From IMG/VR virus record IMGVR_UViG_2671180770_000025: a DNA stretch of 41,019 nucleotides; one strand, written 5' to 3'. The translations under genes and the position numbers were made by a program. Of the stretch, positions 1-41,019 are shown in pieces. Each line of letters begins with the position of its first letter. The stretch's first letter is position 1. The notes below the pieces were generated by a model that was given only the letters and a program-made list of their open reading frames with translations, searched no databases and was not told the origin of the DNA. Source of the DNA: a virus. Lineage: Duplodnaviria; Heunggongvirae; Uroviricota; Caudoviricetes.

Positions 1-1164
1 TTACACATCATTAGTACCTTCCTTATTTTTTGACTGGGACAAATTTGGGACCGATGGGTTTAGGATCGAGTCTATTTGCCGTGCGTGTTCGGTAAGGTGA
101 TTAGGTGCAAGGTGAGCATATCGACGAACCATTTCGATAGACTCCCAGCCTCCCATTTCCTGTAACACTGACAACGGGACTCCGGCTTGAACCAGCCAAC
201 TTGCCCAGGTGTGTCTCAAGTCGTGAAATCTGAAATCATCAATACCAGCCCGTCTCAGCGCCGCTTTCCAGGCTGTGTTTGCGTCATACCGCATCTTCCT
301 GACTGTTGGCGCTTTCGTTCCGTCTGGTTTGGTACAGCTTTCCTTGTACACAAATACCCAACGGTGATGATTCCCGATTTGTTTTTTCAATACGCGACAT
401 GCAGTATCATTCAGCGCAACGCCAATTGCGCGGTTTGATTTACTCTCTTCCGGGTTTATCCATGCCACCCGGCGCTGCATATCTATTTGTTGCCATTCAA
501 GGTTGATGATGTTCGAGCGTCTTAGGCCTGTTGCCAGTGCAAATTCAACAACAGACTTTAATGGCTCCGGACATTCATCAATCAGCCTTTGTGCTTCATG
601 GGGCTCCAGCCAGCGGATCCGTTTATTCTTTGGTTGGGGCACTTTAATAATTGGTGCCTTATCCAGCATTTTCCATTCACGCTCTGCGGCTCTTAGTAGG
701 GCCTTTATAAATGAAAGATGCGTAGCCTTCGTTGCAACGGACGCTGGTTTTGGCGTGTATTCTGGAACAGGTTTCCCTTTTTTTCTGCATGCTTCTGCCC
801 TGAGTTTCCAGTTTTCCTCATGACGCCGGTTCGTCATTTTCTGCATTGCTGAATAAATTTTTGATTCAGTAATGTCTCTTAGTTGCATTCCTGCGAAATG
901 TTGAAGCCAGAATCCGATCCGGCTTTTGTCATCGTCCAGTGATTTTTTATGTGCTTTCTCTTCAAGCCACCTGACACACGCTTCCTCGAACGTTATATCA
1001 GGTATTTCACCAAGTTTGCTGACCCGCCATGCTTCAGCCTTTAGCTTGTCATGGAGTTCTGTCGCCTGCCTTTTGTCCTTTGTTCCAAGAGACTGTTTAA
1101 ATCTTTTACCGTTCGGCAATGTGAAACTGGCGTACCATATTTCACCTCTGCGGAAGAGTGACAT
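1..1164 (-). CDS. int: Tyrosine integrase, P22 Int-like (387 aa)
   Basis: C-terminal tyrosine-recombinase motif [39 protein letters not shown]; N-terminus [14 protein letters not shown] resembles P22 Int as recalled; SD GAGGAAAG upstream of ATG at 1164. Confidence 0.9.
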
Positions 1165-34252: not shown

Positions 34253-34854
34253 TGAATAAAGCTGTATTGAATAGCGAACTCATTGCCATAAAAGCGGGAG
34301 ACATTATCATTTATAATTATGATGGTGAAACGCGGGAATATATTTCTACATCAACTGAATATCTCGCTGTCGGCGTCGGTATCCCGGCATGTTCCTGTTT
34401 GGATGCACCAGGTACACATAAAGCTGGTTATGCAATCTGTCGCTCTGTAGATTTAAATTCATGGGAATATGTGCCAGACCATCGCGGTGAAGTTGTCTAT
34501 AGTACCGAAACGGGAGATACCAAAGAAATCGCAGTTCCGGGTGATTATCCTGAAAATACAACCACTATCGCCCCGTTAACGCCATATGATAAATGGGATG
34601 GTGAGAAATGGGTGACGGATACTGAGGCACAGCATAGTGCCGCAGTAGACGCGGCAGAAGCACAGCGCCAGTCACTGATTGATGCAGCAATGGCTTCCAT
34701 TAGTCTGATTCAGCTGAAATTACAGGCCGGACGGAAGTTGACGCAGGCAGAAACAACCCGACTTAACGCCGTGCTGGATTACACTGACGCGGTGACGGCA
34801 ACAGATACCAGCACCGCGCCGGATGTCATCTGGCCTGAACTGCCGGAGGCGTAG
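34249..34854 (+). CDS. tfa: Tail fibre assembly protein (Tfa/U-like)
   Basis: 201 aa directly after the fibre gene (ATGA overlap). Confidence 0.7.
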
Positions 34855-35266
34855 GCCATTCAATATCTGGCGCACTGGAAGTATCGACCAGTTCCAGTGC
34901 GTCCAGATAATCCAGCCACAGATTATATTGCGCCAGATCCTCGCCTTTCAGACGACCAATAGCGGCTTTACCGGGCCATTGTTTACTGTTCATGTATTCA
35001 TTGGCCTGGCTAATTAACTGCTGTTTTTTAGTTTCAGCAATATCCATAACCATTTTTTTATCTGGCGGAGATATTAATATCCATGCAGGTCTCCCCTGAG
35101 AGGTGGCACCTAATATAAAACCATCAGGAGGAATTTGCGTATATTTATTCCATTCATCATCTGATATTTCGATAGCATCATCTGGCCATCCAATACCGTT
35201 GTGATATTCTTCTTTGCGAGTTTCATCATAAAACCACAATGTTGATGCACTGAAAAAAATTCTCAT
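34826..35266 (-). CDS. Alternative tail fibre assembly protein (Tfa') in the inverted orientation
   Basis: 146 aa on the opposite strand; C-terminus [14 protein letters not shown] parallels the Tfa C-terminus [14 protein letters not shown]. Confidence 0.6.
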   Translation of the reverse strand: MRIFFSASTLWFYDETRKEEYHNGIGWPDDAIEISDDEWNKYTQIPPDGFILGATSQGRPAWILISPPDKKMVMDIAETKKQQLISQANEYMNSKQWPGKAAIGRLKGEDLAQYNLWLDYLDALELVDTSSAPDIEWPTPPAVQAR

Positions 35267-35267
35267 T

Positions 35268-35641
35268 CTAATATCCTATCGCAAACCACGAGAAAGAAAG
35301 TTCTCTGGAATTGGCTGTTGGTGGCTGACCAATGCCCCCACGATAAAACGCCAGAGTTAATCCTCCTGCTTTGCGTGATGTTGTTTGAGCAAATACATAG
35401 TCATTTGTGTTCTCTTCCGCACTTAAAGCTCCTCCGGCAATACAGTCATTAGGGAATGCTGCAGGGAAATTAATCCAGATACTGGACTGCGTTGTCAGCT
35501 TTCCATACCCGGCTTTCAGAATTAATCCTCCTGGTAACTCAAAATTAAGAGGATTGTTTTTTGTAAATGGAAAGTTGGAGATATCCGGTATCTGATTTTC
35601 CCCTGTCCCCACATCCCGTTTTGCCGCTTCTCCCAAACCAA
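35268..35641 (-). CDS. Alternative tail fibre variable C-terminal cassette (no own start; expressed only after inversion)
   Basis: Open frame on the minus strand from the right crossover site; encodes NVGLGEA matching NLGLGEG at the left site. Confidence 0.55.
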
Positions 35642-35653
35642 CGTTTATGAAAA
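35628..35653. promoter_or_regulatory. Right crossover site of the invertible segment (inverted copy of the left site)
   Basis: Reverse complement ttttcataaacgttggtttgggagaa shares AAAC.TTGGTTTGGGAGAA with the left site. Confidence 0.6.
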
Positions 35654-35707
35654 TGCAGAAATAACGAGCAAATGGCATCATTCCTGCTTTTGTCAGGGGG
35701 AGCTACC

Positions 35708-35836
35708 ATGCTTATTGGCTATGTACGCGTATCAACAAATGACCAGAACACCGATCTACAACGTAATGCGTTGAGCTGTGCAGGATGCGAGCTGATTTTT
35801 GAAGACAAGATAAGCGGTACAAAGTCCGAAACCTAG
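35708..35836 (+). pseudogene. pin: Pin/Gin/Hin-family serine invertase, truncated after 42 codons
   Basis: MLIGYVRVSTNDQNTDLQRNALSCAGCELIFEDKISGTKSE matches the invertase N-terminus with catalytic Ser in VSTNDQ; in-frame TAG at 35834, then unrelated AT-rich DNA. Confidence 0.8.
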
Positions 35837-35931: not shown

Positions 35932-37821
35932 TTAATCGTGTTTTGGCCATACTTTCAATGCAATTTCCCCCAACTTTTTACCCCGCTCCAGGATTTCATC
36001 CTCATCCCATTTATCCTTAACTATAAGTGGAATGTTCAGTCGTAGATTGGTGTGGACGATGAGAGCATCACGTTTTTTCAGAAATACAGCATTCTGAACA
36101 GAACGGTTTACGCTAAGGTTAAGCAAAGTTAGATTTCCCAACGTAGCTATCGCTTGTTGCCGTTTCCTTACCAGTAGCTGTTCAGGGGTAAGATCGGTTC
36201 CAGACAGAACAATTTGGTTCAATACCGTAGCATCTGAATTTGTCACCATATGACCATTTTCGAGAGGCCAACAGGAATACCAACTTTGAGGCATAAGATG
36301 ATCGATATCGAGGTTAGAAAGATTTGGAACATCAGGCTTCTCTGTCTTCACTTGGCGACAAAGTTCTCTTTCAAGTTCCGTTAACATTGAGCGCATTTTC
36401 GGTGCGTCGAGCCTGCCAGGATAAAGTGGAGCATTGATGCAAGCGTTGAGAAATTCTGAGTCCCCAGGCCAACGTGAGGCTTCGCCATTTAAGCTATTGA
36501 GGATATTACGTAACTCAACACTGGAAATTTCCGTTTTAGACAAGTGCCGCAATACATTCATAAATACATTGTTGTAATTCTTTGGCGTCAGGCCACATAC
36601 GGCTCTTCGTACTACGTAGGAGACAAGATCATTATACATGGCTGCTTTCTCATCATCGGCGATGTTAGCTATCGAAATGAACAAAGCAAGCGGATAAAGT
36701 GTCGTCACATCATAGGCTGCGATGCGATGTCCAAAGTGTGAGATGGGGGTTGTGCCAAAACCACCAACCAATTCTTTATATTGTGATGCATATTGTTTGA
36801 GGCGCTTTACTTGCAGATCTGCTCGTTGTGAAGGCAAGTCCTTACTTACATAATCACGATACTCATTGTAAAGACGAGACAGATCGATTTCACGTTGCCT
36901 TTCTGATTGCAATGTCGCATGCACTAGCCACTCCATGCGTGGTTTATTAATACGACCACGACGTTGTCTTTCTGACCAGTACGTATCTTCAAAGATCTTC
37001 CACTCATTCTCATATAATTCAACAGCATTAATATTTTCATGTTCAGCGCACATAAAAATATAATTGCGAATAAGATCTGTGGCATGAAGTTCCGCACCTC
37101 TGCCATTTAATGTTTCAAAAATTATTTGAGCGTCATCTTCAGCCTCGAGAAATATGCTTACTAGTTTCAGATCCGTCAAGACAGCCTCAATTAATGCTAC
37201 AGCATTTTCTCGTGGTGAGTGATTTTCTATTTTAATCCACTTTATAAAGGCTTCAGTAAAAAAACATAATGCTTCTAGTGATGGCGGGTGATTAAAATGC
37301 TTACGCAACGTACCATGCTGCGTGAAACTATCAGAGAATACATTCCGGATATCGTCAATATTTTCAACATTAAAACTTTGAATAAAATGAGTTTGATCCC
37401 GAAAAGTTGGCCACAGTTTGAAGCGCTCTACTTCTTTATTTCGCATTGTGTCTTCGTTTGAGTTTTTCAGGCAAGACGAAATGAGAGGCTCTAAGTTGGA
37501 AAGATCTGTCGCACGTAATGCTAATCGGATGGATGCCAGAACATATTGAAGAGTGGTCAATCGTTGCTGACCATCAATAATATGTATGGAATCTACACCT
37601 AATAATCCTTTTTTTGGTTGAGGTTCCAGTACCACTGCACCAAGGAAATGGGGAGTTGGTTTTGTACCCGAGAGCCGGGATTGTGCTTTCTCTAGGATAT
37701 CCTCCAGTAGAGCTGACCATTGGTTTCGCTGAGTCCATACATAGGCACGTTGATAGAATGGAACGCAGTATTGTCGGCGGTCTTGAAAAAGTTGTTGGAC
37801 AGTTAGCGTCTCGGATTTCAT
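35932..37821 (-). CDS. DUF262/DUF1524 two-domain nuclease (GmrSD-like, candidate type IV restriction / anti-phage enzyme); start may be 37881
   Basis: N-terminal DUF262 motifs (VPFYQRAYVWT, IIDGQQRLTTL); C-terminal DUF1524-like His-Me motif (NLDIDHLMPQSW); about 40% GC cargo. Confidence 0.7.
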   Translation of the reverse strand: MKSETLTVQQLFQDRRQYCVPFYQRAYVWTQRNQWSALLEDILEKAQSRLSGTKPTPHFLGAVVLEPQPKKGLLGVDSIHIIDGQQRLTTLQYVLASIRLALRATDLSNLEPLISSCLKNSNEDTMRNKEVERFKLWPTFRDQTHFIQSFNVENIDDIRNVFSDSFTQHGTLRKHFNHPPSLEALCFFTEAFIKWIKIENHSPRENAVALIEAVLTDLKLVSIFLEAEDDAQIIFETLNGRGAELHATDLIRNYIFMCAEHENINAVELYENEWKIFEDTYWSERQRRGRINKPRMEWLVHATLQSERQREIDLSRLYNEYRDYVSKDLPSQRADLQVKRLKQYASQYKELVGGFGTTPISHFGHRIAAYDVTTLYPLALFISIANIADDEKAAMYNDLVSYVVRRAVCGLTPKNYNNVFMNVLRHLSKTEISSVELRNILNSLNGEASRWPGDSEFLNACINAPLYPGRLDAPKMRSMLTELERELCRQVKTEKPDVPNLSNLDIDHLMPQSWYSCWPLENGHMVTNSDATVLNQIVLSGTDLTPEQLLVRKRQQAIATLGNLTLLNLSVNRSVQNAVFLKKRDALIVHTNLRLNIPLIVKDKWDEDEILERGKKLGEIALKVWPKHD

Positions 37822-38554
37822 GGTATACCTGTAAGCGACATTGTACAAAAGTGAGGAGTTAATCTGATTTAGAACAATCATTTTATGTTGCTATGATACA
37901 ACGTATTTGTTACCGGTTAAGTAAAAAACGCGTCTGAACGCTGACGTTTTAGGGCTTTACTAGTTATTCTTTCTTATCTCTTCATCATCCCATCGGCATC
38001 CTGTCGAGGTTGTTGACTTGTTGTTATTTATTTTGTTTAGGCGCTGTTTAATTATTATTGATGGGACTGGTGGTGAGAGGTGATTGAAACCGCAGACAGG
38101 TCGTATGCAAGACGTGCTGCGGTTGGCTGGTAAATGTTAGATAGTGCGAGTATTGAATGATTTCTAGCCGTTATTGATTTTACGTATTTTTGTATGAGAG
38201 GATTTGCATCTCCTGCCACCGACCCTCCATGACTTTACGCCACTGTCTCTAGGGCTGCTATGTGCCAAAAGCGGAAGTTGAGGGGGGATGGCAAGCACTC
38301 GTATCGTGGCAAAATTTTGGCTACCGCTTCTCCCGGTCGCAACCGATTTAGTTGACTATGGCGCGTGTGTTAATCAACGGGGAGGAAGTTAGAGGAAACA
38401 ATAAATAAAGACATAACCGTCTGTTTTTATTTAAATTATTGACTGATGCGAGGAGTTGAACTTCCGATACCCCATGATATCTTACTTAGATAGTGAGATG
38501 ATCTAAGATACACTATATAAGTTACAATCTAGCCGGAGATGTAGGAGGGAGTAT

Positions 38555-39358
38555 ATGGGGTATGATTATAAAGAGCATATTAGCAATGCTAAGAGGCTCT
38601 ATGAAATTGGGGATAACGCTTCTTTAAGATACTGTGCATTGGAATTGAGATTTGCAATTGAGTGCCATGTATATATTCAATTAAGAGCAGGGCTAGGAAC
38701 AATTCCAGAGACGGTAATTAACACATGGCAACCACCTCAAGCAATAAAATCTTTATGCATGTTTGAGGAAACAGCAGATCAGGATTTAAAAGTAACTATA
38801 ACTTGTGATGACTCTAATGAGATAACAGCAAACTATAAAAATATTAAGTATAAGGACCTTAATAAATGGTATAATACCCTTGGGAGTTTTTTACATCAAC
38901 CAACCATAAAAAAGCAAGAATTTCAAGTAGATAAAGATAAACTAAATTCGATATTATCGAATTTAGCTGAACTGTGCGATCATCAGCTCATAACATTTCA
39001 TCGTGGTTATGAGAAAATAAAATGTGAAAAATGTAAAAAGGAAATTATTTTTACTAAAAATTACGTGAAAAAAAATAATAAAATAGATTGCCAAAATGCT
39101 GGTTGCCATAATTATGTTATTATTAGACTTGCCCCGGATGGTACATATGAATCACTCCAATCTGCTGTAGTAGCTTGCTTTATATGTGGTGAAAAAAACC
39201 ACATCTCATTATGCGACATGGAGGATGGAGCAGAGTTATATTGCAAGACGTGTAAAAATAAACATGTAATTAAAAAAGCTATTTTCTCCCAAGACAAAGT
39301 TGTTCCCATACCTGAATTTACTTTCGAAAACTCATTGTTGGTTGAGGACAAAGAGTAA
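38555..39358 (+). CDS. Hypothetical 267-aa protein: helical N-terminal region with R-x5-H motif, C-terminal double zinc-ribbon-like region
   Basis: Very AT-rich; ELRFAIECH fits Rx4-6H; CEKCKK...CQNAGCH and CFICGE...CKTCKNKH Cys clusters; no recognised family. Confidence 0.5.
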   Translation: MGYDYKEHISNAKRLYEIGDNASLRYCALELRFAIECHVYIQLRAGLGTIPETVINTWQPPQAIKSLCMFEETADQDLKVTITCDDSNEITANYKNIKYKDLNKWYNTLGSFLHQPTIKKQEFQVDKDKLNSILSNLAELCDHQLITFHRGYEKIKCEKCKKEIIFTKNYVKKNNKIDCQNAGCHNYVIIRLAPDGTYESLQSAVVACFICGEKNHISLCDMEDGAELYCKTCKNKHVIKKAIFSQDKVVPIPEFTFENSLLVEDKE

Positions 39359-39586
39359 CATCAAGTTGTTTGTAGAGCTTGCTTGACCTGCTCCCCGTTG
39401 ATTAATACATATTTCTGCTGGTCATATCATTATTTTGAGCCTGACGGCTTGATCAACTCAGTCCGCTGTTCGCTCATAGCGGACCTTACAACCACCTGAT
39501 TGGTCCGTTCCGTGTCAGGAGCGGATACCGTAAGCATTTTATCCTCTGGAGGGGCATCCCTTTCAAGAAATGCATCCGTTGTGGAT

Positions 39587-40018
39587 TTATGCAACACCTG
39601 AAGCTACTAACAAAGAACAATTTGTCTGACCAAAGGCATTTTTTAGCAGCGGGAAAAGAGGGGGAAGTTCCGTTAGCGATTTTAGAGGCTTGAGGCTCTT
39701 AAGTGATTTAAGTGATGGCAAATTAGGTGTGGTAACCATGTCTTTTACTGCACAGGCAACATAGCCATCGTGATCAATCAACATACCATTAGTAAACCAG
39801 CCTAAATGATTCCCATTGAATCCATAAACATCAAACTCATTGTTCTGGTTATGTTTAAGGTAGGCGCTTGGTTCACCCTCCCAACTATATAAAGTCAACT
39901 CGTCATCAAGTGAAATATAAACGACGGCGTTGCCTTGATTATCATATAGATCTAGGTCATTACTCGCAGTAACACAAGCTGAGAAAAGAAACATAACTAG
40001 CACGAGTGATTTTTTCAT
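39587..40018 (-). CDS. Secreted hypothetical protein with C-terminal LKS repeat (143 aa)
   Basis: N-terminal signal peptide MKKSLVLVMFLFSACVTA; C-terminal PSLKSLKSLKPLKSL repeat encoded by a short tandem DNA repeat. Confidence 0.45.
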   Translation of the reverse strand: MKKSLVLVMFLFSACVTASNDLDLYDNQGNAVVYISLDDELTLYSWEGEPSAYLKHNQNNEFDVYGFNGNHLGWFTNGMLIDHDGYVACAVKDMVTTPNLPSLKSLKSLKPLKSLTELPPLFPLLKNAFGQTNCSLLVASGVA

Positions 40019-40353
40019 AACTTCTCAAGTTTCTTAGAAAGGAAAAGTTCGAACATTCTATCAAAATTATGAGGACACTAACTTCCGATTTTCGCTCATA
40101 ACAGACATTCACTACAGTTATGGTAGAAGGTATGCATGCTGGGTGGGGAAAGTATGAAGGAAAAGAAGACTGCTGCGCCGTTTGTCGTCACGTTTATCTT
40201 CATTGGCTATGCAAGTCGTAATACAAGGTGGGACAAAACTGAGACACATAAGGCCTCGCAATGGCTTGCAAGGCTTTACATGTTTTGATGTGGTGGGACG
40301 TGTGAGCGCAGTGTTGATGGGGTAATGCTTTGAATTAGAAGCGGATTCTTATA

Positions 40354-40399
40354 ATTCGTAATGCGAAGGTCGTAGGTTCGACTCCTATTATCGGCACCA
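40354..40399 (+). other. attR: 46-nt 3' partial copy of tRNA-Thr (thrW-like, anticodon CGU) from anticodon loop to CCA
   Basis: attcgtaatgcgaaggtcgtaggttcgactcctattatcggcacca matches the 3' portion of E. coli thrW as recalled; the 5' half of the tRNA is absent here. Confidence 0.7.
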
Positions 40400-40563
40400 T
40401 CCCCACTTCTTCAAACGTCCGTATTTGTCCATAAGCATACTGTTTTATAAAAGATTTTTTGTTATCGTTGTCCGTGTTAGTCCATAACCTTCCAGTAGAA
40501 TCCAGTACTAAATGTGTATAGGATTATGTATATGTTCCTGTTCGATTTTGGAATTCTATACAC

Positions 40564-41019
40564 ATGCCCCTAAATGATATGCAGATTCGCCGTGCTAAAC
40601 CTGAAGCTAAAGCCTATACACTTGGGGATGGGCAAGGGTTGTCTTTACTTGTAGAGCCAAATGGAAGTAAAAGCTGGCGATTTCGTTATCGCTATGCAGG
40701 TAAACCTAAAATGATCTCGCTTGGTGTTTATCCAACGATCACACTTGCTGAAGCTCGCGCCCGCCGTGATGAGGCCAGAAAAATAGTGGCCGAGGGAAAA
40801 AATCCTAGTGAGGTTCGAAAAGAACAAAAATTAGCATTACGAATTCAATCTGAGAACGCATTCGAAAAGATTGCCAGAGAGTGGCATCAGATGAAGTCGG
40901 CAAAATGGTCTGCTGGGTATGCCTCAGATATTATTGAGGCGTTCCAAAATGATATTTTTCCGTATGTAGGGACGAGGCCTGTAGGGGAAATTAAACCGCT
41001 AGAAGGCTTTGTTGAATAA
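40564..41019 (+). CDS. P4-type tyrosine integrase, N-terminal part (runs off the window end)
   Basis: MPLNDMQIRRAKPEAKAYTLGDGQGLSLLVEPNGSKSWRFRYRYAGKPK is a typical P4-like integrase N-terminus; just downstream of the tRNA fragment. Confidence 0.75.
   Translation: MPLNDMQIRRAKPEAKAYTLGDGQGLSLLVEPNGSKSWRFRYRYAGKPKMISLGVYPTITLAEARARRDEARKIVAEGKNPSEVRKEQKLALRIQSENAFEKIAREWHQMKSAKWSAGYASDIIEAFQNDIFPYVGTRPVGEIKPLEGFVE

Follow-up and report, generated by a model that had tools for sequence, protein, structure and literature searches.

The phages SfI, SfII, SfV, SfX and P22 have an identical attachment core, and its 46 letters are printed as the attL/attR core in the SfI genome paper (PMC3636060). 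P4-like satellites are defined by a gene set (de Sousa and Rocha, 2021, PMC8628076), and the element Sp2 has been classed as P4-like (PMC2669165). The left inverted repeat (IRL) of the insertion sequence IS903B has likewise been published (PMC10569121). Each component has been described before, from the phage family and its att core to the IS and the tandem arrangement involving P4-like satellites, and the layout is common in Escherichia coli.

Here we analyse a stretch of phage DNA of 41,019 nucleotides, referred to throughout as the window. Its right end is very probably a composite junction at the thrW hotspot downstream of proA in an E. coli-type chromosome, at which a satellite, then IS903B and then an SfV/SfIV-type phage inserted. 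The window contains no attL and just the first 15 nt of the IS, so for the left repeat and the satellite body we rely on relatives.

An orphan tRNA-Thr fragment marks attR

Window positions 40354-40399 (plus strand, ATTCGTAATGCGAAGGTCGTAGGTTCGACTCCTATTATCGGCACCA) agree at 46/46 positions with the 3′ end (positions 31-76) of thrW, an intact 76-nt tRNA-Thr(CGT) gene. ARAGORN calls this intact gene at positions 9761-9836 of contig L004 and in other related contigs, prophage-free relatives included. The base before the fragment, 40353, is A where the tRNA has C, so the match is exactly 46 nt long. The fragment is also letter for letter the 46-nt core of PMC3636060. An exact match of this length cannot have arisen by chance.

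No intact tRNA is called by ARAGORN across the whole 41-kb window, and Rfam gives no match at E≤1 in 39000-41019. Both empty results are expected for the fragment because the piece is only 46 nt long. The first-pass annotation had read it as a tRNA-Thr 3′ end without its 5′ half and as the attR of a P22-type integration. Both parts of that reading hold: ARAGORN finds no full-length tRNA at this position, and the published core is joined by an SfV-like attP arm on its left, an attB-like flank on its right and a cognate integrase. The segment 40354-40399 is thus the att core of the attR of an SfV-type prophage. Its last ~19 nt double as the integrase-proximal att repeat of the P4-like element that follows. 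The right prophage boundary is now base-exact, and the main value of this result is for annotation.

The two flanks of the core have different sources

We aligned five sequences across the junction: the window, SfV attP, the prophage arms of EC19 and O157:H7 TR01, and the unoccupied site. Left of the core, the window is nearly identical to SfV attP from about 40230 and matches the EC19 and TR01 arms from about 40079. The core itself is invariant in 5/5 sequences. Right of the core, the window (TCCCCACTTCTTCAAACGTCC...) has the sequence of the unoccupied chromosomal site and not that of SfV attP (TTTAAATCAATAAG...). This pattern shows the signature that site-specific recombination would leave.

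The left flank, 40079-40353 (plus strand), is the phage-derived arm of attR, that is, the attP arm on the cargo side, and is conserved in E. coli prophages that have the same integrase. When window positions 40020-41019 are used as the query, most matches in E. coli genomes start at query position 58-75. Matches to phages extend to window position 40400. One assembly has a 50-aa gene called within this arm (L003 9573-9725), which we rejected as meaningless.

The right flank, 40400-40563 (plus strand), is the integrase-proximal arm and leader of the P4-like element; the same sequence directly follows the intact thrW gene in prophage-free strains. It contains two direct repeats that are 78% identical (40417-40443, GTCCGTATTTGTCCATAAGC; 40470-40496, GTCCGTGTTAGTCCATAACC). 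A 14-nt inverted repeat (40512-40525, ATGTGTATAGGATT; 40552-40565, AATTCTATACACAT) has a right arm that ends on the integrase ATG. These repeats in 40417-40565 are candidate sites at which the integrase or a regulator of the P4-like element might bind, either arm-type or autoregulatory. A promoter scan of 39500-41019 gave fewer matches than the shuffled sequence.

The prophage is of the SfV/P22 type and its left end lies at the window edge

The window opens with a 387-aa integrase gene (1-1164, minus strand) of the SfIV/P22 type, which matches Pfam Phage_integrase (E 3.2e-48). By tblastn, the product is 100% identical to SfIV Int and 89.9% identical to P22 Int. This gene defines the left prophage end; its stop codon forms the opening triplet of the window. 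Further to the right, positions 15500-40400 show ~97% identity to SfII, SfI, SfIV and SfV over 54-70% of the length of this segment.

In SfV, attP sits in the 261-nt gap between gtrA and int. Within the window, no further copy of the core of at least 12 nt was found, and attL is absent, because the window opens with the int stop codon. The attL of the source genome therefore has to be drawn from relatives, and it would lie outside the window. Six loci encode an identical 387-aa Int, and we ran ARAGORN on three of them (L009-L011). In all three, an intact tRNA-Thr gene ends 14 nt from the int stop codon and is followed by proA and proB. In lysogens with an identical Int, attL consists of the intact thrW followed by TTTAAATCAATAAG and then by TTACACATCATTAG..., the first bases of the window.

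A complete genome gives the same picture. E. coli A27 has the order proB, proA, thrW (76 nt), int, SfV-type prophage, 46-nt fragment and P4-type int, and its fragment lies 38.8 kb downstream of the intact tRNA. The tRNA-derived repeat that the first-pass annotation expected at the left end of the prophage is thus present in A27 and in the lysogens with identical Int that we examined, as an intact thrW 14 nt past the edge.

Both edges of the window are stop codons, that of int at 1-3 (minus strand) and an IS-derived TAA at 41017-41019. The window was apparently trimmed to the ends of genes, so that attL and the body of the IS fall outside it.

Between the tail genes and attR lies a cargo region (35932-40018). 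It encodes a GmrSD-type type IV restriction enzyme (35932-37881, minus strand; Pfam GmrSD_N and GmrSD_C, and a full-length PADLOC mREase_IV match), an uncharacterised 267-aa protein (open reading frame 38555-39358, plus strand) that has no Pfam or PADLOC match, and a 4-fold beta flower protein (39587-40018, minus strand; Pfam Bflower). This region adjoins attR and occupies the slot of gtrABC in SfV-type phages; the SfV annotation places gtrV-gtrB-gtrA in that slot, beside attP. The A27 prophage carries the same three cargo genes as the window.

Next to the cargo region, at window positions ~35708-35836 (L003 5145-5273), is a 42-aa stump of a Resolvase domain, which the A27 annotation describes as an incomplete recombinase. 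Oppositely oriented tail-fibre and tail-fibre-assembly genes (34826-35681) stand beside it, and EC19 and O157 TR01 have a full pinE in its place. Positions 34826-35836 look like a Pin-type invertible tail-fibre segment with a truncated invertase.

The second integrase gene is cut short by IS903B

An open reading frame with an ATG start begins at 40564, 165 nt past the last tRNA base and on the same strand. It matches Pfam Arm-DNA-bind_3 (PF13356, E 4.5e-28, residues 3-88), positions 1-46 of the 96 in Phage_int_M (PF22022) and positions 7-151 of the 413 in NCBIfam PRK09692. The frame has 151 codons, made up of 147 integrase codons, then GFVE and a TAA stop. Residues 1-147 are identical to the N-terminus of a 401-aa integrase of EC19, and similarity to all intact integrase genes ends at 41004. 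Positions 40564-41004 (plus strand) are therefore the first 147 codons of a P4-type (Arm-DNA-bind_3) tyrosine integrase, as assigned from the Pfam and NCBIfam matches and the EC19 identity. The full-length EC19 homologue matches PRK09692 over residues 2-387 and tyrosine-recombinase (Xer-type) models over residues 118-371. The C-terminal catalytic domain (PF00589), with the active-site tyrosine, is absent from the window frame.

The sequence from 41005 on (GGCTTTGTTGAATAA) belongs to an insertion sequence. Positions 41005-41019 (plus strand) are the first 15 nt of an IS903B-type (IS5 family) left inverted repeat, agree with the terminal inverted repeat GGCTTTGTTGAATAAATC at 15/15 positions and supply the codons for GFVE and the TAA stop (41017-41019). 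A longer view comes from contig L003 (NCBI GCA_001277695.1), which matches the final 10,456 nt of the window without a difference and runs 100 nt into the IS. These 100 nt are identical (100/100) to a multicopy element that carries the annotation IS5-family transposase, and the first 50 nt agree (50/50) with the published IS903B IRL. One annotated copy of the element has 1056 bp, terminal inverted repeats and a 9-bp target duplication, and its transposase matches NCBIfam transpos_IS5_2.

The frame at 40564 is, on these comparisons, a truncated pseudogene that arose through IS903B and encodes no functional second recombinase. Since the catalytic domain is missing, the P4-type integrase cannot function, and since IS903B truncates its integrase, the second element is immobilised at best. 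The first-pass annotation had placed a P4-like integrase gene 165 nt downstream of the tRNA fragment in the same orientation. Its start, spacing, strand and family were correct; what follows is not a whole gene, as it consists of 147 codons and then IS sequence.

The 151-aa product is encoded on 18 contigs. Every contig that carries the int/IS junction ends inside the IS, and the junction occurs in no complete E. coli genome. Exact-pattern scans of two public collections, one of metagenomes and one of species-representative genomes, found neither the left int/IS junction nor the predicted right junction, in which the IS end would be followed by the 9-bp duplication CCGCTAGAA and the rest of int.

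Intact relatives of the truncated gene head P4-like satellites

In EC19, the arm and the integrase N-terminus are 100% identical to the window (605/605 nt), and TR01 and A27 show 87-97% identity over the stretch from attR to int. Downstream of the full EC19 integrase gene come a HEPN-domain gene, psu, an ogr/delta-like gene, a helix-turn-helix gene and an Icd-like gene. More generally, the intact integrase in EC19, A27 and O157:H7 TR01 heads an element with int, psu, delta and an Icd-like gene and with variable, defence-like cargo placed between int and psu, and A27 and TR01 also carry an alpha-type primase-helicase gene. Because int, cargo, psu, delta and alpha are present, these integrase-led elements count by gene content as P4-like satellites, each in tandem with a thrW prophage. 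A prophage with a P22-type arm stands between thrW and the satellite in 3/3 of these genomes.

The far end of the satellite can be placed in two relatives. In A27 and TR01, the element ends in a degenerate repeat of the final 18 tRNA nt that lacks one G (~12.6 kb downstream in A27). This repeat is followed by TTTAAATCAA in TR01 (L018 27170-27200) and by TTAAAATCAA in A27 (L017 13425-13455). Both TTTAAATCAA and TTAAAATCAA resemble TTTAAATCAATAAG, which comes after the core in attL as well as in SfV attP, and on the basis of this resemblance the phage arm beside int may mimic the ancestral chromosomal flank of thrW.

The stack in A27 continues beyond the P4-like element (L017 13800-27900). Next come a CP4-6-like block (ykfI, yafW, antirestriction genes and others) and, behind it, genes that the annotation assigns to a heat-resistance island (psiE-GI, kefB-GI, trx-GI), so that thrW carries a stack of at least three or four elements in this strain.

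At least 322 of the 5426 complete E. coli genomes show the phage arm, the core and a P4-type integrase. The count comprises genomes that cover at least 80% of window positions 40020-41019, a coverage that requires all three parts. The first-pass annotation had also proposed a second integrative element in tandem at the same tRNA gene. This is upheld by EC19, A27 and O157:H7, where intact versions of the integrase head P4-like satellites; the copy in the window is truncated. Stacked elements at thrW are often merged or mis-delimited by prophage callers.

The same broken integrase occurs beside an empty thrW

Four independent contigs (L004, L005, L006 and L008) have proA, an intact thrW, the same truncated int and then the IS, with no prophage. 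L004 is identical to window positions 40354-41019 at 666/666 positions, and all four prophage-free contigs have 0 mismatches. These contigs provide the empty site in related strains for which a comparison had been suggested, and the comparison sets the junction precisely at the edge of the 46 nt.

In a fifth contig, L007, a different phage flanks the same IS-broken int on its left. There, the tRNA fragment consists of only the last 19 nt (ACTCCTATTATCGGCACCA), which suggests that a third type of integrase uses a shorter core in thrW. In this part of the contig (L007 6041-7480), a gene for a 425-aa integrase (DUF6538 and Phage_integrase) abuts the junction and belongs to an unrelated phage at thrW.

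Since the same broken int sits both beside an empty thrW and beside the different phage of L007, the comparison speaks for the IS-bearing satellite as the older state that these contigs share. These contigs probably form, though with less assurance than the composite junction itself, a natural series within one lineage, in which the broken int lies next to an empty thrW, an SfV-type prophage or a phage with a 425-aa integrase. The dead satellite would then leave thrW usable by at least two integrase families, and the integrations could be dated against the IS insertion. If this is true, both the order and the rate of thrW integrations become datable relative to that event.

Proposed order of events at the junction

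We infer the following order. A P4-like satellite would have integrated into thrW through approximately the last 19 nt of the gene, an event that would have put its integrase gene 165 nt from the tRNA. IS903B would then have inserted after codon 147 of the satellite integrase and cut the catalytic domain off from the reading frame. Finally, the attP of an SfV/SfIV-type temperate phage, with an HK97-like head, a Mu-like contractile tail and P22-type Int and Xis, would have recombined with the still intact thrW via the 46-nt core. The 46 nt of the phage would complete the tRNA at attL, just beyond the left edge of the window. The displaced chromosomal 46 nt would be the orphan at 40354-40399 (attR), with the phage arm on its left and the P4-like arm and broken integrase on its right. 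The prophage may still be able to excise, and the part of the satellite beyond the IS may survive.

The same final layout would also result if the SfV-type prophage had come first and the P4-like element had then entered the orphan 46-nt fragment as a secondary attB. The fragment includes the entire ~19-nt stretch that is repeated at the far ends of P4-like elements, integration into the attR of a resident prophage is documented for Sp10 and Rac (PMC2669165), and the prophage-free strains could be cured derivatives. However, the arm, the truncated int and the IS junction are found, at 666/666, beside a prophage-free intact thrW in four contigs and beside a different phage in the fifth, and in each of them the prophage would have had to be lost or replaced precisely once the IS was in place. 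The reverse order is unlikely in our view, as one and the same IS-marked stump is seen both at an empty thrW and beside another phage. Far less probable still, and rejected here, is that thrW was deleted or rearranged and left the tRNA fragment behind as a relic, with no role for site-specific integration. We found nothing that speaks for such a relic, and the boundary of the fragment agrees to the base with the published 46-nt core, its left flank is a phage attP arm and its right flank that of attB, a cognate integrase is present, and in complete genomes the opposite prophage end carries the matching intact tRNA.

A separate question is how much of the satellite is left. IS903B, or recombination between IS copies, may have deleted the rest of the P4-like element and left only the integrase stump. 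The ends of all junction contigs inside the IS, the failure to find the right junction with CCGCTAGAA that a simple insertion predicts in the two public collections, and the lack of the junction in complete E. coli genomes are consistent with such a deletion. Yet contig breaks at a multicopy IS are normal for short-read assemblies, and IS903-type elements usually make simple insertions with 9-bp duplications. The scanned collections also hold few E. coli of this lineage, so the absence says little. We regard the loss of the remaining satellite as possible, if doubtful.

Comparison with known systems

The junction resembles the attR of SfI, SfII, SfIV, SfV, SfX and P22 at thrW near proA, with the same 46-nt core, an Int that equals SfIV Int and an SfV-like arm. 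The prophage also has the gene order of the Sf phages (attL, int, xis ... tail genes, cargo, attR), and its virion genes are ~97% identical to theirs. It differs in its cargo: the Sf phages carry gtrABC, whereas the window has the GmrSD enzyme, the 267-aa protein and the beta-flower protein. The sequence right of attR differs as well, as it is the yaiC (adrA) side in Shigella flexneri and a P4-like element here.

The second element shares with P4-type integrases the N-terminal Arm-DNA-bind_3 domain and the position of int beside a tRNA 3′ end (PMC8628076). Of the ~401 codons of the integrase gene, the window retains 147, and the satellite core genes (psu, delta, sid, alpA, epsilon and alpha) are not visible within it. 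The IS has the same IRL as the published IS903B, with only its first 15 nt inside the window.

The closest described tandem is that of O157:H7, whose layout is shared with A27 and EC19 and which has the same stacking as the window. TR01 has the order proA, thrW, P22-type int, prophage remnant, 46-nt fragment, P4-type int, cargo, delta, psu and alpha. We take this tandem to be Sp1 and Sp2 of strain Sakai, or CP-933H and CP-933I of strain EDL933. The state of the two elements is reversed between the two cases: in O157:H7 the first prophage is decayed and the P4-like integrase is intact, whereas in the window it is the P4-type integrase that is broken, by IS903B, beside a first prophage that looks complete.
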